Source: Acutalibacteraceae bacterium
Lineage (GTDB): Bacteria > Bacillota > Clostridia > Oscillospirales > Acutalibacteraceae
Reading direction: 5' to 3'
DNA: 64,000 bases
NCBI GenBank assembly: GCA_051881575.1
Contig: JBJEQD010000105.1
Location: 4,316 to 68,315 of the forward strand
A program made the translations under genes and the position numbers. Positions 17,306-51,585 of this stretch are shown piece after piece. Numbering within the stretch: position 1 is the first letter of the stretch; each line of letters opens with the position of its first letter. The notes beneath the pieces are model-generated. The model was not told where the DNA came from. It saw only the letters and a program-made list of their open reading frames with translations, and did no database searches.

Positions 17306-17396
17306 AGATCGCTGCCCGTAGGGCTGAGGATTGGAAAGGACGCTGAATAATCAAGGTTCACGGTCACACAGTTCGTTCCGCTGAAAAGCGAAATGC

Positions 17397-17507: not shown

Positions 17508-17601
17508 ATTTTTTCTTTGCCCGAAGGGGAATTTACTATGCGGTAATTTCTTCTCGCCCTCTGCTCTTTTTTCTAAATAGTCTTATGTTTTTGTAGGTAT
17601 G

Positions 17602-31904: not shown

Positions 31905-33662
31905 ATGCCCCTTGACGGAATAACCCTGAATCTGTTAACAAAAGAGCTTTCACAATATATAATCGGAAGCAGAGTTGAAAAAATACACCAGCCCTCAAAA
32001 GACGAGCTGGTGTTCCATTTGCGAACCCGTGAGGGCGCATACCGCCTGCTTGTTTCGGCTTCTGCCAACAGCCCGAGGCTTCATCTGATTTCGGGCGCTC
32101 CCGAAAATCCCGCTTCGCCGCCCATGCTCTGCATGCTGTTCAGAAAGCATCTGACGGGTGCGACAATAACGGGAATTCGTCAGCTCGGGCTTGACCGTGT
32201 TGTCTTTCTCGACTTCTCTGGGACAAATGAGATAGGCGACAGCGTAAACTTCACTCTCTGCGTTGAAATAATGGCGAAACACAGCAATATAATTCTGATT
32301 AACGGCGACGGAAATATCGTTGACTCTGTAAAGCGAGTTGACTTTACTCAGTCGTCGGTTCGTCAGATTCTCCCCTCTCTGAAATACGAACTGCCGCCCC
32401 GTCAGAACAAGCTGAATCTGACCGAATCCGACCCCGAAGCGGTTGCAAAAGCGGTTGAAAGCTGCACGGGAAAGCGTCTTTCGGGGGCAATTCTGGAGAC
32501 CGTTGAGGGCGCTTCTCCCTTGATATGCCGAGAGATTGCGGCATTTGCCTGCGGCGACGACATCGCTGTTTCCGAAATGAACGGCTTTCACCGTGAACGG
32601 CTCATTAAGAAACTTTGCGAACTGCGTGATACTCTGCTCAGCGGCAAGGGTGAACCGACAATGCTGATGCGTGATTCCGTAAAGCCTTTTGACTTTACAT
32701 TTACGGATATAACGCAATACGGCTTCACGGTTACTTCAAAGCGTTTTGACAGCTTTTCGGAGCTTCTCGACGACTTTTATTTTGAAAAAGACCGTTTTGA
32801 AAGAACCCGTCAGCGCAGTCAATCGCTGTTGAAGCTGCTGAACAATGCCGCCGCAAGAGCAGCAAGAAAGCTTCAGAGCAGAAAAGCGGAGCTTGAAGCC
32901 TGCGCCGACCGAGACACGCTCAGAATCAATGCGGAGCTTATTCTCGCCAATCAATACAGGCTTGAAAAAGGCTCGCTTTTCTATGACCTTGAAAATTTTT
33001 ATGATGAAAACAAAACGGTCAGAATTGCCACCGACCCTTCGCTTTCTCCCTCGGCAAACGCTCAGAAATATTTCAAGGAATACCGAAAAGCGAAAACGGC
33101 GGAGCAGATGCTCGGCGAGCTTATCGAGCAGAGCGAGCAGGAGCTTGCCTATCTTGAAACGGTTATCGATTCGGTCAACAGAGCCGACGGCTACACGGAG
33201 CTTGCCGAAATCCGAAATGAGCTTTACGAACAGGGCTACCTCAAAAGAGCAAAAACCGATAAGGCTAAAAAGCAGAAACCTCTGCCGCCAATGGAATATG
33301 TTTCCGATGACGGCTACACGATTCTTGTCGGCAGAAACAACATTCAGAATGATATCCTGACCTTCAAAACTGCCGCAAAGGACGATTCATGGTTTCATGT
33401 TCAGAAAATGCCAGGCTCTCATGTCGTTGTTATCGGCAACGGCGATATTATCCCCGAGCGCACCTGCCGTCAGGCCGCCGTTCTTGCCGCCTATCACAGC
33501 GGAGGGCGTGAATCCTCACAGGTTGCGGTTGATTATACCGAAGTGCGTTCGCTGAAAAAGCCGAGCGGCACACGCCCCGGAAAGGTCATTTATCACACAT
33601 ATAATACCATGTGGGTAACCCCCGACCGTGACATATGCGAACGGCTCAAAAAGAAGAAGTGA
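31905..33662 (+). CDS. rqcH: Ribosome quality control protein RqcH / NFACT (FbpA) family
   Basis: MPLDG...RVEKIHQP, PPMLCMLFRKHL, EIMAKHSN, VGRNNIQND, WFHVQKMPGSHV. Confidence 0.92.
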   Translation: MPLDGITLNLLTKELSQYIIGSRVEKIHQPSKDELVFHLRTREGAYRLLVSASANSPRLHLISGAPENPASPPMLCMLFRKHLTGATITGIRQLGLDRVVFLDFSGTNEIGDSVNFTLCVEIMAKHSNIILINGDGNIVDSVKRVDFTQSSVRQILPSLKYELPPRQNKLNLTESDPEAVAKAVESCTGKRLSGAILETVEGASPLICREIAAFACGDDIAVSEMNGFHRERLIKKLCELRDTLLSGKGEPTMLMRDSVKPFDFTFTDITQYGFTVTSKRFDSFSELLDDFYFEKDRFERTRQRSQSLLKLLNNAAARAARKLQSRKAELEACADRDTLRINAELILANQYRLEKGSLFYDLENFYDENKTVRIATDPSLSPSANAQKYFKEYRKAKTAEQMLGELIEQSEQELAYLETVIDSVNRADGYTELAEIRNELYEQGYLKRAKTDKAKKQKPLPPMEYVSDDGYTILVGRNNIQNDILTFKTAAKDDSWFHVQKMPGSHVVVIGNGDIIPERTCRQAAVLAAYHSGGRESSQVAVDYTEVRSLKKPSGTRPGKVIYHTYNTMWVTPDRDICERLKKKK

Positions 33663-33768
33663 TTAATAGGATTCAATAATGCTTTTTGAAGAATGCAAAG
33701 CCGTATTTAATTCTGCGATGAATTAATGTTATAGCAAAAATCGAACTATAATAACCCAAAATCTATTT

Positions 33769-33810
33769 CAGCCGAGTTCGTGCAATTTGTGCGGATTCGG
33801 CTGTTTTTAT
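33769..33810 (+). terminator. Terminator after rqcH
   Basis: CAGCCGAG...TTCGGCTG stem followed by TTTTT. Confidence 0.6.
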
Positions 33811-33927
33811 ACCCAACTCGGATAATGACGCTTTTGTGAAAAATAAAAAAGACAATATTTTTCATAAATATCGCTTTGATTCTCGAAAAAAACGCAGAAA
33901 AAAATTCGCAGTTTTATCCTTTTTCTG

Positions 33928-33956
33928 TTGACAATGCTACGATTATGTGCTATTCT
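33928..33956 (+). promoter_or_regulatory. Strong sigma-A promoter heading the AT-rich gene run
   Basis: TTGACA-17-TATTCT with TG extension. Confidence 0.6.
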
Positions 33957-34039
33957 CATATTGTGAAATAAATAAATTTATTTATTGCGATAGCAATAGG
34001 GTTTATTGAGCGATTATTTCAGTCATTTATATATCGGAT

Positions 34040-34546
34040 GTGGTTATCATTAAACACATTGCAAATATAATTACTGCCGCCAGATTAATTCTTTCTGTTC
34101 CGCTTATTTTTTCAAAGCCTTTTTCGGCGGCATTTTATATTCTTTATTCATTATGCGGACTGTCCGACATGGCGGACGGATTCGTTGCCCGGCGCACGAA
34201 TACTGAGAGCAAAACGGGCGAAAAGCTTGACAGCGCAGCGGATTTTCTGTTTTTGGCTGTATGCTTCATTAAAATTATTCCGTGTTTATCCCTGCCGCCG
34301 TGGATTTGGGTATGGGTCGGAATCATTTTTGCCATCAGAGTTGTAAATATTGTTATAGGATTTATCCTACACGGAAAAGCATTTGCAATGCACACCCCTC
34401 TCAACAAAATCACGGGACTTCTGCTGTTTTTGATTCCGTTTTTCATTCCTGTGTTTAATATTCTCTGCCCTGTTATTATTACCTGTGTTAGTGCAACTCT
34501 CGCATGCGTGCACGAAGGATATCTGATATTAAAGGATAAAGAATAA
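34040..34546 (+). CDS. CDP-alcohol phosphatidyltransferase family protein
   Basis: ANIITAAR, DMADGFVAR...GEKLDSAAD (DxxDGxxAR...GxxxDxxxD); start codon uncertain (GTG 34040). Confidence 0.85.
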   Translation: MVIIKHIANIITAARLILSVPLIFSKPFSAAFYILYSLCGLSDMADGFVARRTNTESKTGEKLDSAADFLFLAVCFIKIIPCLSLPPWIWVWVGIIFAIRVVNIVIGFILHGKAFAMHTPLNKITGLLLFLIPFFIPVFNILCPVIITCVSATLACVHEGYLILKDKE

Positions 34547-34563
34547 TTTATACCTATTTTTTA

Positions 34564-34637
34564 TTGTCTCTGAAATCAAGTAACCGACGGTTAAATCTTG
34601 TCGCAATTATTAACGGGACGGTTTTTGTCAGAGACAA
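34564..34637. repeat. Degenerate ~75-bp palindrome
   Basis: TTGTCTCTGA (34564) / TCAGAGACAA (34628) arms with inner AACCG.C.GTTAA / TTAACGGGACGGTT. Confidence 0.5.
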
Positions 34638-34698
34638 ATCGTTGTTGGTGTAGTTATAAATATATTTTTGCTCGTTTATAGAATGGAGATGATTATAA

Positions 34699-35466
34699 AT
34701 GAGAATTGCTGCGTATCAATTTGCGGTATCCGGAAATATTAGTGAGAATTATAAAGAAATAGAAAAAGCAATATATCTCGCAAAAACTGAAGATGTTCAG
34801 TTGCTTATATTTCCTGAATGTTCATTAACAGGGTATCCTCCGAGGGATATAGCTAATTCGTCATGTGTTGATTTTAATCTTGTTCAGACAATGTGTGATA
34901 AACTTCAATCAATAGCTAACGAAAATGATATTTCCTTTATTATTGGAACTATATTCAAAGAAAAAGAAATCTACAATAGAGCAATGTTGTTTCAGCCTAA
35001 CAGTCAAATTAAGTTCTATGACAAGCGTGCCTTGTGGGGATGGGATAAAGATAATTTCGCAAAAGGCAGTAATGATGGAATATTTGAAATGGAAGGGATA
35101 CAATTTGGAATAAGAATTTGTTTTGAAATCAGATTTCCTGAATTCTTTCGAGAACTATACAAAAGAAATACAGATATAAATCTTGTTCTATTTTATGATG
35201 TAGCAGATAAAGATGATAACGAAAGATATAACATGATTAGAGGACACTTACAAACTCGAGCAGTTGAAAATGTTACTACCACTATTTCTGTAAATGCTAT
35301 TTCACCATTTCAAACTGCTCCGACAATGGTTTTTGGGAAATCGGGTCAGTGCATAAAAGAATGTGTTAGAAATAAACCTGAACTTCTGATTTATGATTTT
35401 GAAAAGACAGATAATGATTTCGGCGAAAATGGAAGGACATCAATATCTGATATGCTGATTGTGTAG
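34699..35466 (+). CDS. Carbon-nitrogen hydrolase (nitrilase superfamily)
   Basis: IFPECSLTGY (Glu), YDKRALW (Lys), ICFEIRFPE (Cys) triad; AT-rich. Confidence 0.9.
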   Translation: MRIAAYQFAVSGNISENYKEIEKAIYLAKTEDVQLLIFPECSLTGYPPRDIANSSCVDFNLVQTMCDKLQSIANENDISFIIGTIFKEKEIYNRAMLFQPNSQIKFYDKRALWGWDKDNFAKGSNDGIFEMEGIQFGIRICFEIRFPEFFRELYKRNTDINLVLFYDVADKDDNERYNMIRGHLQTRAVENVTTTISVNAISPFQTAPTMVFGKSGQCIKECVRNKPELLIYDFEKTDNDFGENGRTSISDMLIV

Positions 35467-35562
35467 AGTGCAATTGATATTTCAAGACAATGAATTGGAC
35501 AACTTCCGGTTTTGTGATAAATTAACGAATTAATCAGTGCAACAAAAAATACGCAAGCATCA

Positions 35563-35910
35563 GTAGGGAACGCCGTCCTCGGCGTTCCGTGGGATTTAAT
35601 ATGTTTTCACGGACAGCCGCAAGGCTACGAATTGTTTTTCATTTTGTAGTGGACGATGCCCACATCGTCCAAACGAACTTTGTTTCATTATTCGCCTGCG
35701 GCGAATTGGTTCGTCGGGGACGCCGAACCCTACGGATTTTTGTGAATTTGTCCGTTTTCAGGTAGCAATCGTAGGGGACAGTCACCCGTCCCGCATAAAA
35801 ACCGTGCCATTGTTCTTATGTTTTACCGGAACGCTGGGGACAGCGTTCTCTACGAGGACTTTGTGCATTTTCGGGTTCTTTCAGGCGGGCGAACACAGTT
35901 CGCCCCTAAC
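35563..35910. repeat. Second GTAG-REP cluster, homologous to 16512-17018
   Basis: 31-bp identity at 35563 vs 16512; 41-bp identity at 35700 vs 16736; seven units. Confidence 0.85.
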
Positions 35911-36051
35911 GATATTGTCACTGATTTCGGCTGTTTTTTCATAACACCGAAGACGGAATTTCTGCATTTCAATGCCGGAGAAATAAATCCGCTACGACAT
36001 GGTGGAATTTTGCGATTTGAAACAAAATCGGAATTTGGAGGTCACAAGGAT

Positions 36052-36675
36052 ATGAGACAAAAATATACATTCTTTGATGGCGGTACAATAGAATTTGATG
36101 ACACAAGAAGCGTGAAAGAACTCATTGCATACGCTTTCGATTGCTTTGGGTATTATGAGCCATTTGGCATTGATGTAGTATCATTGTTTCAACCTCATCA
36201 CTCTAAAACAGATACCGGGTGGTTTACTACTGATATCAAACGAAGTTGTGCAGATGAAATAGAATATCCGAATGAATTGTGTTTTGCGTATTATCTTCCT
36301 GACACATTCTATTTTGCTGAAGGTGGCTGGGGGCACCATATGAATGATCTTGGTAACCATCCCGTAATACCTAATCCGATTTCTCTTAGGATTAGATTTG
36401 ATGGATTCGATAACACGGTTATAATTAACGGTAAATATTGCTTCCATGATATCATTAATGCTTTGATAAGAACCGGTTATATATCCGATAAATGTAAATC
36501 TTTGAAAGTGTTACCCGTAGGTTGTGCCAATAAATCTTATTCCATCCCCTTTTCCGATCCTATAATGAGATTCTCGCTAACAGATTTTGAAAAAGCTATC
36601 CAACAGTATAATTCAAAATACATCAAGTCAGAACAAGGCGATTGCATATACCATGAAATTTTGCAAATTTGCTAA
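36052..36675 (+). CDS. Hypothetical protein (207 aa)
   Basis: Open AT-rich frame from MRQKYTFF with SD-like GGAGG/AAGGA; the ORF-track extension to 35818 runs through REP DNA and is unlikely. Confidence 0.6.
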   Translation: MRQKYTFFDGGTIEFDDTRSVKELIAYAFDCFGYYEPFGIDVVSLFQPHHSKTDTGWFTTDIKRSCADEIEYPNELCFAYYLPDTFYFAEGGWGHHMNDLGNHPVIPNPISLRIRFDGFDNTVIINGKYCFHDIINALIRTGYISDKCKSLKVLPVGCANKSYSIPFSDPIMRFSLTDFEKAIQQYNSKYIKSEQGDCIYHEILQIC

Positions 36676-36889
36676 TAAACACTACAACCAAAAAAATGTT
36701 AAACTATTAATATAAACAATCTATTGAGCAACATAGCTGACAAAAAATATATTAATAATTTTGACAATGTGATATATACAAAAAGGAAAATACATTTCAG
36801 CTTTTGACATTATTGCAAGATATGATAAAGCAAATAAGCATTCTAGAGAACGAACTTTCAAAACTTCCAATTCGTGAGGTATTAACAAT

Positions 36890-37234
36890 ATGCAAAACAA
36901 CAGAGAATTTTGGGAAGCATTGGATGAACTGGTAGCCAATTCGGAAATTATAATTGACAGGCCAAAAGGAACTGCACATCCCAAGTATCCCGATTTCATT
37001 TATAAAGTTGATTACGGATATCTGAAAGATACATCATCCATGGACGGTGCAGGGATAGATGTATGGGTTGGAAGCGGCGAAAAAAAGATTGATGCGATAA
37101 TGTGTATTGTTGATTTGATAAAAAAGGATTCGGAAATCAAAATACTGATTGGATGCACGGAAGAAGAAAAGAAAATAATATATGAAACACATAACGAAAC
37201 CCGGTTTATGAAAGGTGTTTTAATACGCCGATAA
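36890..37234 (+). CDS. Small inorganic pyrophosphatase-like protein
   Basis: IIDRPKG..HP.YP.FIYKVDYGYL..T.SMDG.GIDVWVG. Confidence 0.8.
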   Translation: MQNNREFWEALDELVANSEIIIDRPKGTAHPKYPDFIYKVDYGYLKDTSSMDGAGIDVWVGSGEKKIDAIMCIVDLIKKDSEIKILIGCTEEEKKIIYETHNETRFMKGVLIRR

Positions 37235-37275
37235 ATTCCGCTTTATTAACAAGTATTCGGAAAGGAGGAGCCCGA

Positions 37276-37668
37276 ATGTTTTCTCCGACGCCTTTCGGCA
37301 CGATGCTTAAACAGCTGCGTGAAGAAAAAGGTCTGTCGCAGGGTGAGCTTGCCGAGGAGCTGAACAAAACAGCTCAGTACATCAGCAACATCGAAAAAGG
37401 CAAAAACAATGCGCCGCCAAATGAGCACGATTTGCAGCTTTTGATAAAAAAGCTTGGTTTGATGGGCGATGACGCCGAAAAATTCAGGATGCTCGCCTAT
37501 GCCGACCGTGGCATGCTTCCGCCCGAAATGTTCAGCTATGTTTTTGAACGGCCGTCGCTTATCGGGCTTATCCGCTGTGCCATGAACAATGAAATCTCCG
37601 AAGATTATTGGAACTGTTCAATCAAAAAAATAAACAACGCCGACATAATCGGCAGAAAGGAAAACTGA
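37276..37668 (+). CDS. XRE-family helix-turn-helix regulator
   Basis: LKQLREEKGLSQGELAEELNKTAQYISNIEKG. Confidence 0.85.
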   Translation: MFSPTPFGTMLKQLREEKGLSQGELAEELNKTAQYISNIEKGKNNAPPNEHDLQLLIKKLGLMGDDAEKFRMLAYADRGMLPPEMFSYVFERPSLIGLIRCAMNNEISEDYWNCSIKKINNADIIGRKEN

Positions 37669-37669
37669 T

Positions 37670-39091
37670 ATGAGCCAAACTCCCGATTATGTTAAATATG
37701 CCGCTTCCGTCGTTCCGAGCGAACGGCAGATAAAATGGCAGGAGCTTGAATTCTATTCATTCATTCATTTCGGAATGAACACATTCACCAATTCCGAATG
37801 GGGCAACGGCAACGACGACCCCGAGCTTTTCAACCCCGAAAAGCTGGACTGCCGCCAATGGGCGAAGGTCTGCCAGCTTGCGGGAATGAAAGGCATGATT
37901 CTGACTGCAAAGCACCATGACGGCTTCTGCCTTTGGCCGACTGCCTACACGGATTACTGCGTTCGTTCAAGCCTCTGGAAAGACGGCAAGGGCGATGTTG
38001 TTGCCGAATGTGCAAAGGCTTGCAAAGAATTCGGCTTGAAATTCGGCATATATCTTTCGCCTTGGGACAGGCACGAGGCAACCTACGGCTCGGGCGAAGC
38101 GTATAACCGTTTCTTCAAAAATCAGCTTCGTGAGCTTCTGACCGCTTACGGTGATATCTTCTGCGTTTGGTTTGACGGAGCGTGCGGCGAAGGCCCCAAC
38201 GGCAAGAAACAAGAATACGATTGGGAGGGCTATTACAAGCTCATCCGTGAGCTTCAGCCCAACGCAACCATTAATGTCTGCGGCCCCGATGTCCGCTGGT
38301 GCGGCAATGAGGCGGGCGTTTGCAGAAAGAGCGAATGGAGCGTCGTTCCCTATTGGCATTCAAACTATGAGCTGATTAACGCCGCAAGTCAGAGCGATGT
38401 TTCAAAGCCGCCTAAAAAAATAAATCCCACCGCCCTTGATCTGGGCAGCAGGAAAGCAATTAAAAAATGCAGCAAGCTGATTTGGTACCCCGCCGAGGTC
38501 AACACCTCGATAAGAAAAGGCTGGTTTTATCACGCCGACGAGGATTATTCGGTCAAACCGCTCTCAAAGCTTATGGAAATTTACTATAACTCGGTCGGTT
38601 CAAACGCCAATTTCCTTTTGAACATTCCCCCGACACCCGAGGGAAAATTCCACGAAAAGGATGTTGAAACCCTGCTCTCAATGGGTGCTCAGCTTGAAAT
38701 AGATTTCAACGAAAATCTTGCCGATGATTCGATAATGACGGATAACCGCCATCTTGACGAAAAGCACACGGGTCAGGCGGCTCTCAGCCATGACCCCGAG
38801 GATTACTGGCACTCGGGCGACAATCCCGAGGGCGCAGAGCTGATTCTTGACCTCGGAGACGACTATGATATCGATAAAATCGTTCTCGGAGAGCATATCA
38901 GAACGGGTCAGCAGATTGAAAAATTTTCGCTTTATGCTGAAATCGACGGAAAATGGAAAAAAATATTCTCGGGAACGATTATCGGCTACAAGCGTATCTG
39001 CCGCTTCAAGGAAATGAGAATTCAGCGCTTCAAGCTCGTCATTGAGCAGGCAAGATGCTTTGCAACAATCGCAAAATTTGAGGCTTATTAA
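37670..39091 (+). CDS. Alpha-L-fucosidase (GH29) with C-terminal F5/8-type domain
   Basis: FIHFGMNTF, LTAKHHDGFCLWPT, YLSPWDRH, VWFDGA, SIRKGWFYH. Confidence 0.92.
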   Translation: MSQTPDYVKYAASVVPSERQIKWQELEFYSFIHFGMNTFTNSEWGNGNDDPELFNPEKLDCRQWAKVCQLAGMKGMILTAKHHDGFCLWPTAYTDYCVRSSLWKDGKGDVVAECAKACKEFGLKFGIYLSPWDRHEATYGSGEAYNRFFKNQLRELLTAYGDIFCVWFDGACGEGPNGKKQEYDWEGYYKLIRELQPNATINVCGPDVRWCGNEAGVCRKSEWSVVPYWHSNYELINAASQSDVSKPPKKINPTALDLGSRKAIKKCSKLIWYPAEVNTSIRKGWFYHADEDYSVKPLSKLMEIYYNSVGSNANFLLNIPPTPEGKFHEKDVETLLSMGAQLEIDFNENLADDSIMTDNRHLDEKHTGQAALSHDPEDYWHSGDNPEGAELILDLGDDYDIDKIVLGEHIRTGQQIEKFSLYAEIDGKWKKIFSGTIIGYKRICRFKEMRIQRFKLVIEQARCFATIAKFEAY

Positions 39092-39429
39092 TCCCACTCT
39101 TTCCAGATTTCGGGGCAATAGCCGACGGTTGCCTGCTTACCGTTGCGGACAATCGGGGTTTTGAAAAGCTCGCCGTGTTCGAGCAGCTTTTCCTCAACCG
39201 CCTCTTTGCTTGCAAGATATTTGATAAAATGCTTTTCGTAAGCCTTTGATTTTTCGTTGATAAGGGCTTCCATTGAGCCGACAGCGGCTTTGACGCTGTT
39301 GTATTCACCCTTGCTCATGCTCTTTTGAGAAAGGTCGATGAATTGAAACTTGATTCCCCTCTCCTTGAAATATCTCTGCGCTTTTTTGGTGTCAAAGCAT
39401 TTATTTGTTCCGAAAATCTGTATATTCAT
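39088..39429 (-). CDS. ArsC/Spx-like arsenate reductase family protein
   Basis: MNIQIFGTNKCFDTKKAQRYFKERGI, KTPIVRNG. Confidence 0.85.
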   Translation of the reverse strand: MNIQIFGTNKCFDTKKAQRYFKERGIKFQFIDLSQKSMSKGEYNSVKAAVGSMEALINEKSKAYEKHFIKYLASKEAVEEKLLEHGELFKTPIVRNGKQATVGYCPEIWKEWD

Positions 39430-39458
39430 TAATATCACTCCGTTTTTGGTATAATACT

Positions 39459-40799
39459 ATGGTAATAAATATTCCTCAACAAGTCAATAGAGCAATAAAA
39501 ATTCTTTCTTCATGCGGTCATTCGGCTTTCGTTGTCGGCGGGGCTGTCAGAGACATGCTCATGGGCGTTTCGGCTCACGATTGGGACATTGCGACCTCCG
39601 CTCAGCCGAGCGAAACCCTTGCCGCTTTCAAGGATTTCAGAACGGTTGAAACGGGAATCAAGCACGGAACGGTCACGGTTATTATCGATGGAATGAGCCT
39701 TGAGATAACCACTTTCCGAATTGAAAAAGGCTATTCCGATAACCGACATCCCGACAAGGTTGAGTTTGCCTCGGATATCTGCGAGGATCTCTCACGGCGG
39801 GATTTCACCGTTAACGCCATTGCGTATTCCCCCGAATCGGGCTTCGTTGACCCGTTCGGCGGCAAAGAGGATATTGAAAGTCAAATAATCAGATGCGTCG
39901 GAGAAGCGGACAGGCGTTTCGGCGAAGATGCGCTCAGAATTCTTCGTGCATTGAGGTTTTCGGCAACTCTCGGATTTGAGATTGAGGCTGAAACGGCGGC
40001 AAGCATTCACAGAAACTTCAGGCTTTTGGAGCATATTTCCTCCGAAAGAATATTTGTTGAAATGTCGAAGCTTCTCTGCGGCAAAAACGCAGGCAAAATT
40101 CTTAGAGAATATGAAGATGTGATTTTCTTCATCTTCCCTGAGCTTCGGGCGATGAAAGGCTGCAATCAAAATCACGAAAGGCATATTTTCGATGTCTGGG
40201 GGCACACGGTCAAGGCGGTTGAAACGGTAAGTCCCTCTCCCGAGCTACGCTTCGCCATGCTTTTTCATGATTCGGGAAAGCCCGAATGCAAGACAACCGA
40301 TGAAAACGGAGTTGACCATTTTTATTCTCACGCAAAAAAAAGCAGAATTATTGCTTATAATATTTTGACAAGGCTCAAAACCTCGTCAAAATTCCGTGAA
40401 CGGGTTTGCAATCTCGTTGAATATCACGATGTTCTGCCCGATAAAATAAGCAAAAAGACCTATAAAAAATATATTTCCCTGCTCGGATTTGAAACCGTAA
40501 AACAGCTTTTTGAGGTTCGTGCCGCCGATGTTTCGGCTCAGAACCCCGCCTTTTTGAACGAAAGCCTGAAAGCAAACGAAAAAGGGCTTGAAATTCTCGG
40601 CGATATTGAAAAAGAAAACGCCTGCATGAAGCTCGGCGATCTTGCAATCGGCGGAAAAGAGCTTGAAAACCTCGGATTCAAGCCCTCGCCCGAAATGGGA
40701 AAAATTCTGAATATTCTCCTTGACGAGGTCATGGAAGAAAAACTTGAAAACACTAAGGACGCTCTGCTCGGCAGAGCCATACAGCTGAAACAGCGCTGA
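39459..40799 (+). CDS. cca: CCA tRNA nucleotidyltransferase with HD domain
   Basis: VGGAVRD, DWDIATS, DLSRRDFTVNA, EDALRILRALRF, HDSGKP. Confidence 0.92.
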   Translation: MVINIPQQVNRAIKILSSCGHSAFVVGGAVRDMLMGVSAHDWDIATSAQPSETLAAFKDFRTVETGIKHGTVTVIIDGMSLEITTFRIEKGYSDNRHPDKVEFASDICEDLSRRDFTVNAIAYSPESGFVDPFGGKEDIESQIIRCVGEADRRFGEDALRILRALRFSATLGFEIEAETAASIHRNFRLLEHISSERIFVEMSKLLCGKNAGKILREYEDVIFFIFPELRAMKGCNQNHERHIFDVWGHTVKAVETVSPSPELRFAMLFHDSGKPECKTTDENGVDHFYSHAKKSRIIAYNILTRLKTSSKFRERVCNLVEYHDVLPDKISKKTYKKYISLLGFETVKQLFEVRAADVSAQNPAFLNESLKANEKGLEILGDIEKENACMKLGDLAIGGKELENLGFKPSPEMGKILNILLDEVMEEKLENTKDALLGRAIQLKQR

Positions 40800-40810
40800 A
40801 AGGAGCCGCT

Positions 40811-41860
40811 ATGGAAACCGTAAAGATTGAAAATGCACAGGAATTTGACAGCTTTGTCCGTTCTAACCCGAAAGGTCACATGATGCAGACCTCGGCATGG
40901 GGAAAGGTCAAAAAGGAATGGGAATGGAGAGGCTTTATCAGCCGTGACGAAAGCGGAAAAATAAAAGGCGTTTGCGGAGTTCTGCTCCGTCAGATACCCA
41001 TGACGCCGTTCAAGATGATGTATGCCCCGAGAGGCCCCGTCTGCGACCTTGCCGATAAAGAAACCGTCACCGAGCTGCTCACCGCAGTTAAGGAATACGG
41101 CATCAAGAACAAAGCATATACTTTTAAGATTGACACCGACACTCTCGCCTCAAACACGGAATATATCAGCCTGTTAAAGGAACTCGGCTTCACCTTCAAG
41201 GATCATAATGCCGCTTTCAACACGATTCAGGCAAGATACATTTTCAGGCTTGATATTGCAGGAAAGACCGAAGAAGAGGTCATGGCTTCGTTCCACCCCA
41301 AAACCCGCTACAATGCCCGCCTTGCGGCAAGAAAAGGCGTAACCGTTGAAATCAAGGGTGCGGAAGCCTGCGAAGAATTTCACGATCTTATGCTGATAAC
41401 GGGCGAAAGAGATAATTTTGCAACCCGTGACGCTTCATATTTCCGCAGAATCATGGACGCATTCGGCGACGACGCAAGGATTTATCTTGCCAAATACGAG
41501 GGCAAAACCATTGCGGGCGCATTGAATGTTATCTGCGGCGACAAGGAGTGGTATGTCTACGGCGCAAGCTCCAACGAATACCGCAATGTCATGCCGAACT
41601 ACCTTGTTCAATGGGAAATGATACGCTGGGCAATCGAACGGGGCTGTAATTATTATGACTTCAGAGGCGGCTACCCAGACGAGAACAACCCCCTGCACGG
41701 CATTTTTAAATTCAAAAAAGGCTTCTGCAACGACTACATGGAGCTCATGGGCGAAGCGGATCTGATTATCAACAAATTTGGCTTTAAAGCTGTTGACGCC
41801 GCTCAGAAGCTTGCAAAATCAACCCGTGGAATCCGTGCAAAGATAATCAACCGCAAATAA
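40811..41860 (+). CDS. FemABX family peptidoglycan bridge aminoacyltransferase
   Basis: MYAPRGPV, KTRYNARLA, YVYGASS, PNYLVQWEMI, YDFRG, KFKKGF. Confidence 0.9.
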   Translation: METVKIENAQEFDSFVRSNPKGHMMQTSAWGKVKKEWEWRGFISRDESGKIKGVCGVLLRQIPMTPFKMMYAPRGPVCDLADKETVTELLTAVKEYGIKNKAYTFKIDTDTLASNTEYISLLKELGFTFKDHNAAFNTIQARYIFRLDIAGKTEEEVMASFHPKTRYNARLAARKGVTVEIKGAEACEEFHDLMLITGERDNFATRDASYFRRIMDAFGDDARIYLAKYEGKTIAGALNVICGDKEWYVYGASSNEYRNVMPNYLVQWEMIRWAIERGCNYYDFRGGYPDENNPLHGIFKFKKGFCNDYMELMGEADLIINKFGFKAVDAAQKLAKSTRGIRAKIINRK

Positions 41861-41920
41861 TCATCGCTTCACAAATCAGACAACTACGAGTCAGAGACAT
41901 TCTTTGACTGCTCAAACCTC

Positions 41921-41972
41921 CATAAAATCATTGGGGCAGCGTCGGCTTCGGCGCTGCCCCGATGATTTTATA
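41921..41972. terminator. Bidirectional terminator between the fem gene and rarA
   Basis: ATAAAATCATTGGGGCAGCG...CGCTGCCCCGATGATTTTAT long stem. Confidence 0.75.
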
Positions 41973-41980
41973 ATCTTTAT

Positions 41981-43249
41981 TTATGGCTTTTTCTTTATTC
42001 TTGACCAATATTCCTTGGCGGCCTGTTCATTTTTGTTGTCGCCGAATTCGTAGTATTTTTTATTTTTCAGCGCATCGGGCAGATACTGCTGTTCGACCCA
42101 ATGACTCGGAAAATCGTGGGCATATTTATAAAACTGCCCTTTGTTTTTGTTATCCTCGCCGTCATAGTGCATGTTCTGGAGCTGACGGGGAACGGGGCCC
42201 GTTCTGCCTGCCGATACATCCGCCATCGCCTCATTTATCGCATTATATGCCGAGTTGGATTTAGGGCTGTTCGCAACCAGCACCACGGCATCGGCAAGCG
42301 GAATTCTCGCTTCGGGCAGGCCGAGCATCATTGCCGAATCAACCGCCGCCTTGACTATCGGAATTATCTGAGGATAAGCAAGCCCGACATCCTCGCAGGC
42401 GCAGACAAGCAGCCTGCGGCAGGCGGAAACAAGGTCGCCCGCTTCAAGCAGCCGTGCAAGATAATGCACCGCCGCATCGGGGTCTGAGCCACGCATCGAT
42501 TTCTGATAAGCGGAAATAATGTCGTAATGCTCGTCGCCGTCTTTATCATAGCGCATTGCGCTTTTCTGAGTCAGCGCTTTTGCATTTTCAAGCGTTATCA
42601 GCTTTTTGCCGTTATCCGAATTTGCCGAAAGCACGCAAAGCTCAACGCTGTTCATCGCCTTTCGGACATCGCCGCCCGCCGCCGAGGCAATGTGAGAATA
42701 AACTCCGTCCTCAACGGAATACTCCTCTCCCCTGTCCTCAGCCATAAAATCAAACGCTCTTTTGACGGCTTTTTCGATTTCAGCGGGGGTAACGCTCTTG
42801 AATTCAAAAACCGTGGAGCGGCTCAGAATTGCGCTGTAAACATAAAAATACGGATTCTCCGTGGTTGAAGCAATGAGAGTAATTGCTCCGTTTTCGATAT
42901 ATTCAAGCAGGGTTTGCTGTTGTTTCTTATTGAAATACTGAATTTCGTCAAGATAAAGCAGAATGCCGTTCGGCGCAAGAAAGGTGTCAAGCTTTGCGAC
43001 AACCTCTTTGATATCCGCCGTGCCTGCGGTCGTTCCGTTGAGCTTAACAAGATGGCGGTCGGTCTTTTTCGCAATTATGCTCGCAAGCGTCGTTTTGCCG
43101 ACCCCGGGAGGGCCGTAAAAGACCATGTTGGGCAGCTCGCCGGATTCGATAATATTTCTCAGCGGCTTGCCCGTGCCGAGCAAATGGGTCTGACCGACGA
43201 TATCTTCAATTGTTTTCGGGCGGAGTCTTTCCGCAAGCGGAGCCGACAT
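41981..43249 (-). CDS. rarA: Replication-associated recombination protein A (MgsA family)
   Basis: PLAERLRP, GPPGVGKTT, DEIQYFNK, TTENPYF, KSMRGSDPDAA. Confidence 0.93.
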   Translation of the reverse strand: MSAPLAERLRPKTIEDIVGQTHLLGTGKPLRNIIESGELPNMVFYGPPGVGKTTLASIIAKKTDRHLVKLNGTTAGTADIKEVVAKLDTFLAPNGILLYLDEIQYFNKKQQQTLLEYIENGAITLIASTTENPYFYVYSAILSRSTVFEFKSVTPAEIEKAVKRAFDFMAEDRGEEYSVEDGVYSHIASAAGGDVRKAMNSVELCVLSANSDNGKKLITLENAKALTQKSAMRYDKDGDEHYDIISAYQKSMRGSDPDAAVHYLARLLEAGDLVSACRRLLVCACEDVGLAYPQIIPIVKAAVDSAMMLGLPEARIPLADAVVLVANSPKSNSAYNAINEAMADVSAGRTGPVPRQLQNMHYDGEDNKNKGQFYKYAHDFPSHWVEQQYLPDALKNKKYYEFGDNKNEQAAKEYWSRIKKKP

Positions 43250-43276
43250 AAAAAATCACTGCTTTCTGAGATGCTG

Positions 43277-43732
43277 TCAAAGTTTTGAAACTGCCGAAGA
43301 ATATTTTTCGGTAATGATAAGATAAATCGTGCCGTCCGAGGCTTCGGCAACCTCGCTTTGGGCGGTTTTTGCGTAGTTTTCGGGCGAATATGACTGCGTG
43401 TTGCTCTTGACGCTTTCAAGATAGGTTTCGAGAGAAGCAATAACACCCGCCTTGTCTGCGCCGTCTTTCAGCCTGATAAGAATAATTGCGTCAGCGTTGA
43501 TATCGGGTTCTGCCGCTTCGGCAAAAACATATTCCTCAAACCGAGAAAGGTCAACGCCGAACAGCGTTTCAATCAGGCTGTCGGGCATGACCGACATTTC
43601 GGGCATACCGTCCGAAGCCGAAACGGATGCGTAAATTTCACTCAGCGGTTTCCGGGCTTCTTTGCCCGTGCAGGAAGCAAGCAGGCAAAGGCAGACCGCC
43701 GCCGCAAGAAAAACCGAGATAACTCTCTTCAT
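43277..43732 (-). CDS. DUF4358-like lipoprotein
   Basis: Lipobox LLASC; LFGVD..FEEY, YSPENYAK. Confidence 0.7.
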   Translation of the reverse strand: MKRVISVFLAAAVCLCLLASCTGKEARKPLSEIYASVSASDGMPEMSVMPDSLIETLFGVDLSRFEEYVFAEAAEPDINADAIILIRLKDGADKAGVIASLETYLESVKSNTQSYSPENYAKTAQSEVAEASDGTIYLIITEKYSSAVSKL

Positions 43733-43747
43733 AACAAACTCCTCCTT

Positions 43748-44623
43748 TTATTTTGCGCCGAGCCTTTCAGCCCAGATTTCATATGCGCCGTTGCCCTGAT
43801 GAATAAAGCCGTCGCTGCAATACTTGCCGTCAAGGGCATATTTTTCGTTTTGCAGACCCGACATAATGTCTATATAGTCAAGCCGTTCATCTTCAAGGCA
43901 GATAAGCTTCATATTGTGGTTGAGGTTCGCAAGATTGAGATTGTTGAGATTCTTTTTCTGCGCCTGCTCAACCATAAAGGTTGTGCTGACAATATAAATA
44001 TGAATATTCGGGTCAACGCCCCAAACGGAGTTTATCAGCTTGCAGTAGTTTTTGACCGTGCCCTCAACTCCGAATCCCGAAATATCGTTTATTCCGAGAC
44101 AGAAATATATATTCTTCGGCTTAATCTCCTCAACCGCTTTGAGAAGCGGAGTTTCTTTGCCCTTATAAATCGGATGCTTGAAGCCCTTATCCGCCGCCAT
44201 GCTTTTGCTCAGAGCATAGTGCACGGCATATGAGCCTGCGGTCAGAAACACGGTTTCTTTCATTATACCCTGCTTTGCACAGTAGCGTGAAAAACCGAGC
44301 GATACGGAATCGCCGACAAAAACCGAATCGGACAAGTCGGGCTTTTCGGTTGTTGAGCCGACGGGAGTGCCCGTTGATTCCTCAGAGGAATAAATAATTA
44401 TTCTTTCGGGGAATGCAAGAGTCAGAAGCTCAGTCGGCTTTTCGGTTTGTGAAAGCGTTTGCGGCTGAGATTCTCCGACCGTTGACGGCACAAAAGCAGA
44501 ATACTCCGCAGTCACCCTGTTCTGACGCCGTGAAGCTCCGATTTCATAATATCCGATTTTAAAAGCGACTGCACACAACACCAATACCGCAAAAAATACC
44601 GCTGTTTTTGCAAGCGTTTTCAT
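43748..44623 (-). CDS. SGNH/GDSL family protein with N-terminal anchor and Ser/Thr-rich linker
   Basis: FVGDSVSLG, LGIND, SDGFIH. Confidence 0.75.
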   Translation of the reverse strand: MKTLAKTAVFFAVLVLCAVAFKIGYYEIGASRRQNRVTAEYSAFVPSTVGESQPQTLSQTEKPTELLTLAFPERIIIYSSEESTGTPVGSTTEKPDLSDSVFVGDSVSLGFSRYCAKQGIMKETVFLTAGSYAVHYALSKSMAADKGFKHPIYKGKETPLLKAVEEIKPKNIYFCLGINDISGFGVEGTVKNYCKLINSVWGVDPNIHIYIVSTTFMVEQAQKKNLNNLNLANLNHNMKLICLEDERLDYIDIMSGLQNEKYALDGKYCSDGFIHQGNGAYEIWAERLGAK

Positions 44624-44771
44624 CTGATACCCTCCGAAAAATCGCTTTTCTCATTTTTCAGAATTAAATTATAGCATAAAGACTTAAACTTGTCTATACT
44701 TTCCCGTGCTTTACATTTCGGAGAATTAATGTTATAATAGTATTATTATACTGAATGCGGAGAGCTTTTGC

Positions 44772-45515
44772 ATGGATAAATTCAGAAAAGAATACCTCGG
44801 CTCGGGGATAACCGCCTTCGTTTCGGATTCCCACAGTTTCGGAACAGACGCAGTTCTGCTCGCCGATTTTTCCTCGCCGTCAAAGTGCTCCGTCTGCTGT
44901 GACCTCGGCTCGGGCTGCGGAATAATCCCCCTGCTTTGGTGCAAAAAAGAGACGGGCAAAATCACCGCCGTTGAGCTTCAGAAGCTTGCGGTTGAGCAGA
45001 TTAATGCGGCAATAGAATATAATTCGCTCTCCGAAAGGCTCAGCGCAGTCAATGCGGATTTAAGAGATCTTAAAGGCTCGGTTCCGTTCGGCTGTTTTGA
45101 CCTCGTGACGATGAATCCGCCCTACAAGGCGAGCGGAGCGGGAATTGAGAGCCGAAGCGGAGCGGATAAAATCGCAAGGCACGAAACGATGTGCACCTTT
45201 TCGGATATTTGCGCCGCCGCAAAAAAGCTGCTTAATTTCGGCGGCAGGCTCTGCATGTGCATCCGTCCCGAGCGGCTGTGCGAGCTTATGCTTGAAATGC
45301 ATTCGGCAGGCATCGAGCCGAAAAGGCTTCGCCTTGTTGCAAAATGCCCCGGCAAAGCGCCGTGGCTTGCCCTGATTGAGGGGCGCAGGGGCGGCAAAAG
45401 CGGAATAACCGTTGAACCCGAGCTTTTCGTTCACGGCTCGGACGGAGGTTACTCCGAGGAAATGAAAAAAATCTACGGCGATTATCTTTTGGAAAACAGA
45501 GGTGAAAATTCTTGA
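44772..45515 (+). CDS. tRNA1(Val) A37 N6-methyltransferase family (YabB/TrmN6)
   Basis: FGTDAVLLADF, DLGSGCGIIPL, MNPPY, ARHE. Confidence 0.85.
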   Translation: MDKFRKEYLGSGITAFVSDSHSFGTDAVLLADFSSPSKCSVCCDLGSGCGIIPLLWCKKETGKITAVELQKLAVEQINAAIEYNSLSERLSAVNADLRDLKGSVPFGCFDLVTMNPPYKASGAGIESRSGADKIARHETMCTFSDICAAAKKLLNFGGRLCMCIRPERLCELMLEMHSAGIEPKRLRLVAKCPGKAPWLALIEGRRGGKSGITVEPELFVHGSDGGYSEEMKKIYGDYLLENRGENS

Positions 45516-46339
45516 GCGGAACTCTTTTTGTTGTCGGCACGCCTATCGGCAATCTCGGAGACACATCTCCGAGGGCGCTCAGCGTTCTTGAAAGCGTTGA
45601 TTTCATTGCCGCCGAGGATACAAGAGTCAGCCTCAAGCTTTTGAATCACTTCGGGATAAAAAAGCCGATGATAAGCTATTTTGAACATAACCGTTTTGAA
45701 AAAGGCCCGATAATTGCCGAGCGTTTGCTGAAAGGCGAAAGCTGTGCAATCGTTACGGATGCGGGAATGCCCGCAATCTCCGACCCCGGCGAAGATCTTG
45801 TTAAGCTCTGCATTGAAAAAGGAATACGGATTGAAGCCGTTCCGGGTCCGTGCGCTTTTGCAACGGCTCTTGCGGTTTCGGGAATGCCGTCACGGCGTTT
45901 CACCTTTGAGGGCTTCCTGCCGACGGATAAGCAGGAGAGAAAAGCGCATATTGAATCGCTTATCGGCGAAAAAAGAACAATGATTTTCTATGAAGCCCCG
46001 CATAAGCTTGCCGCAACCCTCTCCGACCTTGCCGCCGCTCTCGGAGACAGAGAAACGGCAATAGTCAGAGAATTAACCAAAATTCACGAGCAGGTTCTGA
46101 AAACAACCCTATGCGCCGCAGCGGAAAAATATTCCGCCGAGAGCATAAAGGGCGAAATCGTTCTGATTGTTGCGGGCGCAGCTCCAGAGGAAAAAGACGA
46201 AATGACGCTTGCTCAGGCGGCGGACTATGCAAGGGAGCTCATAGAAAAGGGTGAGAGCAAAACGGACGCCGCAAAGATTGCCGCAAAGATGAGCGGCTTG
46301 AAAAAAGGCGATATATACAAGCTTTTGGTGGAGGAATAA
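45512..46339 (+). CDS. rsmI: 16S rRNA C1402 2'-O-methyltransferase
   Basis: GTPIGNLGD, AAEDTR, DAGMPAISDPG, FYEAPHK, RELTKIHE; TTG start. Confidence 0.93.
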   Translation: MSGTLFVVGTPIGNLGDTSPRALSVLESVDFIAAEDTRVSLKLLNHFGIKKPMISYFEHNRFEKGPIIAERLLKGESCAIVTDAGMPAISDPGEDLVKLCIEKGIRIEAVPGPCAFATALAVSGMPSRRFTFEGFLPTDKQERKAHIESLIGEKRTMIFYEAPHKLAATLSDLAAALGDRETAIVRELTKIHEQVLKTTLCAAAEKYSAESIKGEIVLIVAGAAPEEKDEMTLAQAADYARELIEKGESKTDAAKIAAKMSGLKKGDIYKLLVEE

Positions 46340-46343
46340 AAAT

Positions 46344-46955
46344 ATGCTTCAATATTATTCGGAACGCCCGTATCTGTTTTTGATTTTTGCCGTGCTCATC
46401 GCTCTGACGGTGTTTGTCTGCATTATGGCAGGCAGAGCAAGCTCAAAAAGATACAAGGCAAACGAAAAAATCATGAAAAAGCTGAAAGAGGAGAACGAGC
46501 TTCGCAACGAGTTTGCCGTTTTGACAGAAACCCTTGCGGAAAAATCCGAGCCCGAAAGACTTTTTAAAGGCGTTGCTCTGAATCTGCAAAAGCGTGTTTC
46601 TGATGCGGAGGATATGATTGCCGAGTTTAACTCTCTCACATCCGAACAGCGGGAAATATACGCTCTTTCCGTCGTTGTCGAGGACGGCTCTGAAAAACTG
46701 AGCGAATTTTTCAGAGCAAGCGTTCAGCCCCTGACGGGAGCGGCGCTTGATGCGGTCAAACACATTTTCGGCGGTAAGGCGGCGGAAATTTTTGAAAGCG
46801 AATTTAACTCCTTTGACCCCGATAATGAAACCGCTTCGGTAATTCTCGCAGAGATTGAGAAAAAGGACGCCGAGTTTGCCTCAATTCTGCCTGAAAATGA
46901 GCTTTGCCGCAAAGCCGGAATGTTCATAAAGGAAAATTTTGATAAATTTATCTGA
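46344..46955 (+). CDS. Hypothetical protein with N-terminal TM helix
   Basis: 203-aa ORF with host-like codon usage and SD GGAGG. Confidence 0.6.
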   Translation: MLQYYSERPYLFLIFAVLIALTVFVCIMAGRASSKRYKANEKIMKKLKEENELRNEFAVLTETLAEKSEPERLFKGVALNLQKRVSDAEDMIAEFNSLTSEQREIYALSVVVEDGSEKLSEFFRASVQPLTGAALDAVKHIFGGKAAEIFESEFNSFDPDNETASVILAEIEKKDAEFASILPENELCRKAGMFIKENFDKFI

Positions 46956-47004
46956 ATAGAATCACCTCCCGAAGCCGAAAATATCGGTAACGGGAGGTAT
47001 TATT

Positions 47005-47544
47005 ATGGAATTCAAAGGAAGCAAAACCGAAGCCAATCTTATGGCGGCGTTCGCAGGCGAATCTCAGGCAAGGAACAAATACACCTTTTATGCCGACAAG
47101 GCAAAAAAAGACGGCTATGAGCAGATTGCCGATATCTTCATGAAAACTGCCGACAACGAAAAAGAGCATGCAGAAATATGGTTCAAGCATCTGCATGAAA
47201 ACTCAATTCCGGGAACGGCGGAGAATCTGCTTGATGCGGCGGCAGGCGAAAACTACGAATGGACTGAAATGTATAAAGAATTTGAGCAGGTCGCATCTCA
47301 GGAGGGCTTCACGGAGATTGCCGCTCTGTTCAAAATGGTCGGTTCAATCGAAAAAGAGCATGAAAACCGTTTCAGAACCCTGAGCAAAAATCTTGAACAG
47401 GGAATCGTTTTTGCAAAAAGCGGCGAAACCGTCTGGCTGTGCCGCAACTGCGGTTATATTCATGTTGCCAAAGCCGCTCCGAAGGTCTGCCCGGTTTGCG
47501 CTCATCCTCAATCATTTTTTGAGGTCAGGGCGGAGAATTATTAA
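47005..47544 (+). CDS. rbr: Rubrerythrin
   Basis: AFAGESQARNKY, NEKEHA, EKEHENRF, C-terminal CRNCG...CPVCAHP. Confidence 0.93.
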   Translation: MEFKGSKTEANLMAAFAGESQARNKYTFYADKAKKDGYEQIADIFMKTADNEKEHAEIWFKHLHENSIPGTAENLLDAAAGENYEWTEMYKEFEQVASQEGFTEIAALFKMVGSIEKEHENRFRTLSKNLEQGIVFAKSGETVWLCRNCGYIHVAKAAPKVCPVCAHPQSFFEVRAENY

Positions 47545-47569
47545 CGCCGTTTGCGGCAAATACGCATCA

Positions 47570-47603
47570 AAAAAAGAGGCTCCCAAAGCGGAAGCCTCTT
47601 TTC
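47570..47603. terminator. Bidirectional terminator between rbr and the DUF378 gene
   Basis: AAAAAAGAGGCT...AGCCTCTTTT. Confidence 0.7.
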
Positions 47604-47871: not shown

Positions 47872-47900
47872 TATTATTAGCCGAATGAATGCTTTTATAC
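47872..47900 (-). promoter_or_regulatory. Putative sigma-G/F (forespore) promoter for the DUF378 gene
   Basis: GTATA-17-AATAATA matches the B. subtilis sigma-G consensus. Confidence 0.5.
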
Positions 47901-47919
47901 TTTTAAGGGCAGGAAATCT

Positions 47920-48471
47920 TTAGAAATAAAATTTAACATCGCTGTCTTTGAGCAGCGGTGCATTTTTATCTTTTTCGGAAAGAACGGGGTCGGTTATTCC
48001 CCAGTCAACTCCGATTTCGGGGTCGCAGAAGCAGACGCTTCTGTCATTTTCGGGGGAATAAAATTCATCAACCTTATATGAAATTTCAACATTTTCGCTC
48101 AGGGTAACAAAGCCGTGCAGACAGCCTTTCGGGATAAAGAGCATTTTTTTGTTTTCTTCGCTCAGTTCAACCGCAACCCACTTCATAAATGTCGGCGAGC
48201 CTTGACGGATATCAACCGCCACATCGAGAATTTTACCCTTGAGGCAGGTCAGGAGCTTCGCCTGAGCCATCGGGTCGGTCTGGCAATGCAGGCCTCTGAG
48301 CGTTCCTTTTTTTGCCGAAAAAGAACGGTTATCCTGAACAAAATCAACATTTATGCCGAGCTTTTCAAATTCTCTTTTTGAATATGTTTCGTAAAACCAG
48401 CCTCGGTTATCGCCGAAAACCTTCGGTTCAACAATATAAACGCCGTTAACGGCAGTTTCATTCAGCGTCAT
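47920..48471 (-). CDS. rmlC: dTDP-4-dehydrorhamnose 3,5-epimerase
   Basis: [38 protein letters not shown]; start 48471 or 48477. Confidence 0.93.
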
Positions 48472-49396: not shown

Positions 49397-49555
49397 ACAA
49401 AACACTCCGTTTCAAAATTGAACTGCCGCAAGCTTTTATTTTAGAGTATAATACCACTATTTGTTAAAAATGTCAACAAACAATAGATATTTTCGCTTTT
49501 TCTTTATGAAAAGTGTTAATAAAGCTGTTTTTTTCGTTTATTTTTAAATAAAAGG

Positions 49556-49602
49556 TTTACATTTAAATTAGAATGTGATATAATCGTTTAGAACATTTGT
49601 TC
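49556..49602 (+). promoter_or_regulatory. uvrBA promoter with LexA (Cheo) box
   Basis: TTTACA-17-TATAAT (TG-extended); GAAC-ATTT-GTTC at 49591-49602. Confidence 0.8.
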
Positions 49603-49623
49603 ATAGACGGAGGGTCGGATTAT

Positions 49624-51582: not shown

Positions 51583-51585
51583 TAT

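Follow-up and report, generated by a model that had tools for sequence, protein, structure and literature searches.

A strain-variable array of gene and REP modules with a shared AT-rich near-palindrome at its junctions in Acutalibacteraceae

We analysed a 64,000-nucleotide stretch of DNA (the window; contig C105, positions 4316–68315) from the genome of an Acutalibacteraceae bacterium (G000; an assembly of 2.55 Mb in 164 contigs, 92.6% complete). The window as a whole has 45.8% GC, but it contains a 3.6-kb island with only 36.0%, placed between rqcH on one side and an HTH_3 regulator gene with an alpha-L-fucosidase gene on the other. On balance, we favour the view that this island is a hypervariable accessory-gene array, in which gene modules and blocks of repetitive extragenic palindromes (REPs) are bounded by a short motif and exchanged at it. 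The motif, derived by comparison with relatives, is a near-palindrome of about 15 nt, CAAAWYC-N-GRWTTTG. Among near relatives the locus varies module by module and the junctions carry copies of the motif; the same motif forms the ends of REP modules elsewhere in the genome and is present in other families of the order Oscillospirales. We infer that it is the DNA site of exchange.

Junctions among near relatives

A preliminary description of this DNA had proposed a cassette array here and suggested comparing the locus across strains. In that comparison homology switches exactly at three copies of the motif, namely motifs 1 and 2 and a fifth copy at 36859–36873. The near relatives, G054, G093 and G097 (G with a number denotes the other genomes compared), have flanks about 95% identical to those of G000. 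Between two anchors, a CDP-alcohol phosphatidyltransferase family (CDP-OH) gene on the left and a pyrophosphatase-like (InPase-like) gene on the right, G000 carries a nitrilase gene, a REP train and a gene for a hypothetical protein of 207 aa (hyp207). The same slot holds only 228 bp of REP sequence in G054, and a DUF1349 gene, REP sequence and a 152-aa gene in G093, while in G097 a GNAT gene stands ahead of the InPase-like gene. As in minimal mobile elements (MMEs), different gene cassettes occupy the same conserved flanks, with four states in four genomes; a second slot, on contig C56, has three states. The run of functionally unrelated genes in one orientation, low in GC and headed by a promoter, which had been proposed from the G000 sequence, does vary between strains, and its promoter is conserved in G054 and G097.

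At each of four junctions one flank is conserved and the other is replaced, as follows:

J1, 34633–34647: left flank 80–89% identical, right flank 44–53%; four different right partners
J2, 35498–35512: right flank 91–93% identical, left flank 47–60%; six left partners, being five gene 3' ends and one REP block
J3, 36859–36873: right flank 87–96% identical, left flank 47–62%; four left partners
C56-left: left flank 91–96% identical, right flank 36–62%; three partners

At J1 to J3 the motif is present in every case. The variable partners across the junctions are the nitrilase, DUF1349, GNAT and 152-aa genes and REP modules, and the motif 3 sequence recurs at the junction equivalent to J1 in G054, G097 and G093. 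Further contigs (X1 to X4) agree in part with these positions. Contig X2-11 aligns up to 34641 and continues with 329 letters unlike the window, whereas an X3 contig aligns from 36862 onward. An X1 contig joins 34639 to 35504, that is motif 1 to motif 2, which is weak evidence, being a single contig whose shorter side has 30 letters. The X2 and X3 contigs give no cover over 34821–35453, nor X3 and X4 over 36298–36719, and we treat these as holes rather than as evidence.

At the C56 slot, the match to G054, G093 and G097 breaks off where one motif copy has its right edge and begins again at a REP1 head, the left edge of a second copy. Between these points G000 carries a DUF952 gene (named by reading its translation only), REP sequence and a small Zn-ribbon-like gene, G054 carries 122 bp of REP sequence, and G097 carries an open reading frame (ORF) of about 290 aa that is kinase-like, likewise by reading of the translation only. 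On contig C103 the order is promoter, motif, Shine–Dalgarno sequence, small gene, stop codon, motif and REP1 head. The two variable loci also share a piece of sequence: the tail of the window's REP train (35955–36037) is a paralogue of C56:29390–29468 and holds a relic of the last codons of a gene, with its downstream spacer, that is intact on C56. This relic indicates that pieces of one variable locus are copied into another; one boundary of the copied piece lies off the motif.

Layout of the island

Pfam and ORF checks placed the genes, their order, their plus-strand orientation and the REP train where the preliminary description had put them, and the four 15-mers that it had listed, with a further copy at 5943, are all in place. 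The features are:

31905–33662: rqcH/NFACT, left neighbour of the island
33769–33803, plus strand: terminator-like hairpin behind rqcH, a 16-pair stem followed by a T run
33928–33956, plus strand: promoter-like TTGACA-17-TATTCT with TG before the second hexamer, 10/12 consensus, heading the array
33967–33986: perfect AT palindrome of 20 bp, placed after the -10 box and ahead of the first gene; conserved in G054 and G097
34040–34546, plus strand: CDP-alcohol phosphatidyltransferase family gene (CDP-OH_P_transf, PF01066, 7.3e-17), 168 aa, GTG start, left anchor
34633–34647, plus strand: junction motif 1, left half intact and right half degenerate; homology of G054, G097 and G093 ends here
34699–35466, plus strand: carbon–nitrogen hydrolase module (CN_hydrolase, nitrilase superfamily), 32.4% GC
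35498–35512, plus strand: junction motif 2, 5' terminus of the REP1 head module
35513–36021: REP train made up of GC-rich hairpins headed by GTAG; motif 2 pairs with motif 3 to close it
36023–36037, plus strand: junction motif 3 (CAAAATCGGAATTTG), fused to the GGAGG that precedes hyp207
36052–36675, plus strand: hyp207, 35.6% GC, no Pfam or NCBIfam family
36859–36873, plus strand: fifth junction motif (CAAAACTTCCAATTC), overlooked in the preliminary description; homology of G054, G093 and G097 starts here
36890–37234, plus strand: InPase-like gene, 114 aa, 25 bits against a Pfam cut-off of 26.8, right anchor
37230–37244, plus strand: junction motif 4, including the InPase stop codon
37276–39091: HTH_3 regulator and alpha-L-fucosidase genes, right neighbour of the island

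Four of the five motif copies lie 27–63 nt upstream of a start codon. The true start of hyp207 is the ATG at 36052 behind GGAGG; the listed ORF, from 35818, extends back into the repeats. Homology of G054 and G097 to the window resumes at about 33757, and the hexamers of the array promoter are identical in both genomes. A strong promoter behind the rqcH terminator had been proposed; a promoter-like site and a hairpin do stand there, but such sites are not more frequent in the region than in shuffled sequence (13 versus 15.2). No plus-strand terminator was predicted inside the island, and an Rfam scan of 33500–37400 gave as its sole match S15 at chance level (E 0.45, 18.5 bits against 39.5). 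The spacer behind the InPase-like gene, with motif 4, is the most variable stretch in G054, G097 and X3. CDP-OH orthologues occur only in G054 (92%) and G097 (86%), the next best match in the genome contigs being 49%, and among metagenome contigs the protein has no relative above 51% identity. Across 120 other genomes of the genus, the closest match to the nitrilase has 30% identity. In G054 (contig C24) and G097 (contig C232) an extra small ORF lies between rqcH and the terminator, and the CDP-OH leader is about 150 nt longer than in the window.

The AT palindrome at 33967–33986 is a putative operator-like element. Since G078 has a similar palindrome, of 22 bp, between its own low-GC array and the divergent HTH–fucosidase genes, the element may be an operator of the neighbouring HTH_3 regulator.

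REP modules end in the motif

Matches to the REP train sequence number about 100 (102) and are spread over more than 40 contigs of the genome, many of them intergenic trains of GC-rich GTAG hairpins of the REP/BIME type (BIME, bacterial interspersed mosaic element). As single-stranded DNA the train folds to -101 kcal/mol (z -6.0), and the fold is closed by motif 2, which pairs with motif 3 at 14 of the 15 positions. The motif is also the 5' end of a REP1 head module of about 70 nt, present in 11 copies on 10 contigs, and the outer end of three further REP types. One short inverted repeat therefore bounds many unrelated repeat units, here the REP1 head and three other REP types, as is also the case in the intergenic mosaic elements of Neisseria (NIMEs) discussed below.

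A REP array at 16300–17600 contains the same hairpin families with a different head type that lacks the junction motif. Its left neighbour is a gene for an M23 peptidase with Listeria–Bacteroides repeats (14308–16293, 38.7% GC) and its right neighbour a gene without family assignment (17602–18519, 29.7% GC). The ORFs at 16538–16870 and 16933–17283 lie within the repeats and are probably not genes.

Frequency of the motif

In the form first proposed, AAMT-N5-TTK, the motif is at background level. The window contains 102 matches compared with 107.9 +/- 9.7 after shuffling, and 76 of 100 shuffles reach 102; within 33928–37250 there are 13 against 9.0 +/- 3.2, with 69 of 500 shuffles reaching 13. 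On the plus strand alone that region has nine matches against 4.4 (10/500 shuffles), for a pattern that was fitted post hoc. The copy at 5943, which had been linked to the array, is an isolated and degenerate copy; it lies 45 nt upstream of a DUF6870 gene encoded on the opposite strand, and nothing supports the connection.

The refined motif behaves differently. Allowing up to two mismatches, the 15-mer has 41 matches genome-wide, compared with 6.1 +/- 8.3 for 40 permuted controls, one of which reached 51. A degenerate 12-mer has 147 matches, compared with 34.5 +/- 25.5, and 1 of 200 controls reaches 147. Of these matches 35 are intergenic, where intergenic DNA makes up 10.9% of the genome; most of the coding matches are probably codon-driven. 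A literature query by motif strings only returned just primers and unrelated uses.

Other species and other families of the order

In nine other species of the genus, tblastn searches of seven rqcH-side and seven HTH-side loci found none of the four island genes, and rqcH and the HTH–fucosidase block were on different contigs. In G022 and G001 rqcH runs into homologues of window positions ~47900–56100, so that the island sits at a rearrangement junction; the interval 33663–47600 of the window is a synteny break with respect to relatives. In G024 the HTH–fucosidase block is preceded by homologues of C105:69970–83080 in inverted order. These synteny differences imply that a block of about 10 kb from the HTH gene onward sits elsewhere in other species. 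G078 has a low-GC array (GNAT, methyltransferase, YjbR, a gene without Pfam match, InPase, GNAT) lying divergently beside the HTH–fucosidase genes, with an AT palindrome at its head.

The InPase-like gene was found at 19 places in 16 of the 120 other genomes, at 83–96% aa identity and beside many different neighbours, sometimes twice per genome and often on very short contigs. At the DNA level it is 82–86% identical, compared with 75–80% for core genes, which suggests exchange within the genus. In the distant species G022 and G021 the gene ends in TAA plus the motif, as it does in the window at motif 4. For hyp207 there were 212 homologues, all unnamed or 'hypothetical', with 48–69% identity among the 120 listed. 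Among 400 other sampled genomes of the order it occurred in one, from another family, at 61% aa identity. In that genome a motif copy and a Shine–Dalgarno sequence precede the gene, and a complementary copy directly follows its stop codon, ahead of a terminator.

Among 201 genomes of the order, 96 contain the pattern CAAAWNGGAATTTG exactly, whereas a scrambled version of it is present in 35. When the first 40 sites in the list were inspected, 11 fell outside open frames of at least 100 codons; for control sites the figure was 1 of 40. The fifth position is T in 16 of these first 40, about 12 of which are intergenic or in leaders as read by eye. GNAT, methyltransferase, DUF3916 and DUF3784 genes are flanked by the motif in G221, G165 and G243, and no transposase is among them. 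One array, in G221, has the motif between its genes and includes a sigma-70/DUF4367 pair.

Recombinases and transposases

The preliminary description had asked whether the array is an integron. Its head promoter and its co-oriented, strain-variable cassettes match those of an integron, but on the integrase and on attC the array falls outside that family. The best match to the integron integrase profile TIGR02249 in the whole genome scored 46.4 bits against a cut-off of 265 bits, the genome being 92.6% complete. Four tyrosine recombinases (Phage_integrase) lie on contigs C62, C63, C92 and C34 and none on C105. No repeated attC-like element was found, the spacers 34547–34698, 36676–36889 and 37232–37275 being single-copy in the genome; what separates genes here is a single 15-nt motif or a 540-bp REP train.

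A recombinase at 3836–5530 had been put forward as a candidate enzyme. The genome encodes five large serine recombinases, and this (3836–5536) is one of them; it has Resolvase, Recombinase, Zn ribbon and DUF4368 domains and lies 28 kb from the array with era, recO, phoH, feoB and other housekeeping genes between, which speaks against the proposal. It adjoins a DUF6870 gene, and the interval 3836–5898 looks like the edge of an integrated element. In G060 (contig C44; L078, 6993–8890) a large serine recombinase gene and an HTH_3 gene stand directly downstream of a low-GC array; among the arrays examined, this one alone adjoins a recombinase.

G000, again at 92.6% completeness, yielded no IS110-family gene. 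The genome does encode an apparent REP-associated tyrosine transposase (RAYT), a Y1 transposase of the HUH type. The PF01797 match on C67 scores 25.7 bits and is a 183-aa ORF with an HxH motif; a second match, on C26, scores 74.1 bits and is cut by the contig end. The RAYT-like gene is a single Y1 gene located between sugar-metabolism genes (C67:70024–70575; L085, 1450–2001, minus strand), and in its own reading frame it carries a REP1-like GTAGGGAACGCC...GGCG, read as VGNAVPGV. This protein is one candidate for the exchange enzyme, although the tests made tie none of the recombinases and transposases named here to the motif.

Discussion

In the reading that we favour, each module would be a small low-GC gene or a REP block that ends in half of the ~15-nt near-palindrome. 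Because every module would end in half a motif, a whole copy would stand at every junction. Modules would be gained, lost and replaced between the CDP-OH and InPase anchors by recombination or targeted insertion at the motif, and the conserved promoter would drive the run. Several REP families across the genome end in this motif as well, so that genes and REP blocks would form one mosaic. This retains part of the earlier idea of crossover scars left by cassette capture, since homology switches at the motif and its refined form is enriched; the role of the motif as a site is our inference, and the integron version of the idea fails. The cassettes had also been called promoterless, which is doubtful because elsewhere the motif sits 8–14 nt behind a -10 box of its own.

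Several observations weigh against this account. The exact switch point wanders from the centre of the motif to either edge. Breakpoints between different genes necessarily fall in short spacers, so a motif that is common in spacers will often coincide with them, and comparisons with G000 are not independent events. The assemblies are fragmented metagenome-assembled genomes (MAGs) whose contigs break inside these repeats. Some REP arrays have other head types that lack the motif, such as the array at 16.3–17.6 kb. The generic palindrome CAAAT-N4-5-ATTTG is not enriched, its 14 copies falling mid-range among 20 arm permutations, and, among the exact matches, many of those in which the fifth position is A fall in coding sequence and are most probably due to chance. 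No recombinase or transposase was linked to the arrays examined, save the serine recombinase beside the array of G060. Target-site duplications were not visible at the junctions inspected, and an autonomous element with these ends was not found in the loci examined. Finally, in several genomes (G022, G128, G253 and G165) and at several of the 40 sites sampled across the order the motif lies 8–14 nt behind a -10 box and 0–4 nt before a Shine–Dalgarno sequence.

This last arrangement would also fit a motif that is mainly an expression element, such as an operator for a conserved dimeric regulator or an RNA element in 5' leaders and 3' trailers with pairing copies. The locus would then be an ordinary hot spot of horizontal transfer with homologous or illegitimate replacement, and the motif would travel with the gene that needs it and so mark the edges of expression units. 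The position of four of the five window copies shortly upstream of start codons, the complementarity of the 5' and 3' copies of one module and the absence of a linked recombinase in the arrays examined are all consistent with such a role. It leaves unexplained at least four non-coding REP families that end in the motif and the REP blocks that fill the same slots as genes. At locus L156, moreover, the motif supplies the -35 box instead of lying at +1, which means that it has no constant place with respect to the promoter. We consider this the main rival, a possible explanation that we nevertheless doubt. Alternatively, the modules could be mobile insertion cassettes or miniature inverted-repeat transposable elements (MITEs), with motif halves as terminal inverted repeats and a transposase acting in trans or lost. 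Inverted copies do stand at both ends of the REP train, where they pair at 14 of 15 positions, and also at the ends of single genes; the passenger genes are unrelated to transposition and the head module is multi-copy. The junctions inspected show no target-site duplication, the motif pairs in the loci examined enclose no transposase, and no member of the IS110 family was found in the 92.6% complete genome. Modules also abut directly and share one motif copy, which is unusual for independent insertions, and we regard this origin as unlikely.

Chance recurrence of a short AT-rich word in AT-rich spacers would account for the first form of the pattern, which is at background level. For the refined motif it is contradicted by the junction table, the REP termini, the flanks of hyp207 in another family and the permuted and scrambled controls, and it is very improbable. 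A true integron, or an integrase-less attC cluster, as proposed initially, is close to refuted. The head promoter and the co-oriented, unrelated and strain-variable cassettes speak for it, as does a content of GNAT, DUF and methyltransferase genes, which resembles that of chromosomal integron cassettes. Opposed to it are the TIGR02249 score of 46.4 bits against 265, the lack of a tyrosine recombinase on the contig, junction segments that are unique in the genome, and inter-gene elements that are a 540-bp REP train or a 15-nt motif rather than an imperfect palindrome of attC size.

A more far-reaching version of exchange at the motif can be imagined, which we put forward as speculation and think rather improbable. 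Here Oscillospirales would possess a cassette system analogous to integrons but independent of an integrase, in which an AT-rich palindrome of 15–18 bp serves as a universal core site for cutting and joining small accessory genes (GNATs, hydrolases, methyltransferases and DUFs) and REP hairpin modules. Single-stranded hairpins might be the substrate and the RAYT-like HUH transposase, in domesticated form, the catalyst, which would make REP arrays the landing pads for captured genes.

The closest described design, by analogy, appears to be that of the Neisseria NIME/dRS3 arrays together with MMEs, and the array may work like these. According to passages of PMC1797815, dRS3 inverted repeats (20 bp, ATTCCC-N8-GGGAAT) flank RS units that form arrays beside variable genes, and its authors proposed the short repeat as a recombinase site; MMEs are named in passages of PMC1538595 and PMC1797815. 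As in NIMEs, numerous repeat units that are unrelated to one another have one short inverted repeat as their boundary and form arrays next to variable genes, and, as in MMEs, whole-gene cassettes differ between conserved flanking genes from strain to strain. In contrast to NIMEs, the present motif occurs in Bacillota (Oscillospirales), is AT-rich and about 15 nt long, and also bounds protein-coding modules, overlapping stop codons and ribosome-binding regions. Its sequence differs from dRS3, so it does not belong to the Neisseria family, and a counterpart of the phage recombinase that targets dRS3 was not found, G000 having no detected IS110-family gene.

Other systems share single features with the array. 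REP/BIME–RAYT systems have GTAG-headed, GC-rich intergenic hairpin trains, here in about 100 copies, and a single RAYT-like Y1 transposase gene in a housekeeping context (compare PMC5581495). Some REP arrays here lack the motif, which sets the two apart. An AT-rich palindromic terminus in common with gene modules is not known as a feature of REP/RAYT systems. Integrons likewise have promoter-headed runs of co-oriented, unrelated, strain-variable cassettes, each ending in a short core copy, with an inter-cassette element that can fold into a hairpin closed by inverted core sites. Unlike them, the array has no IntI and no attC-like repeated element. Its motif bears no relation to the attC core, is scattered across many loci instead of making up a single array, and elsewhere accompanies cassettes with promoters of their own. 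Mobile insertion cassettes, MITEs and the pdif modules of Acinetobacter plasmids carry passenger genes without transposition function between short inverted sites. Each module here is similarly flanked by inversely oriented sites, but no target duplication or cognate transposase was found, and the modules are chromosomal and lie among REP arrays.

To our knowledge, no integron is on record for Gram-positive bacteria, and what REP/RAYT systems do is a standing question. A short palindrome that joins genes and REPs and marks where near-identical gut strains differ would, if confirmed, link these two questions. It would also offer a way to study the shuffling of small genes for detoxification and modification in gut Clostridia, which are abundant but uncultured. 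The motif is useful on a more modest reading too, as it predicts sites of strain-variable genes in fragmented MAGs and explains why assemblies break there.

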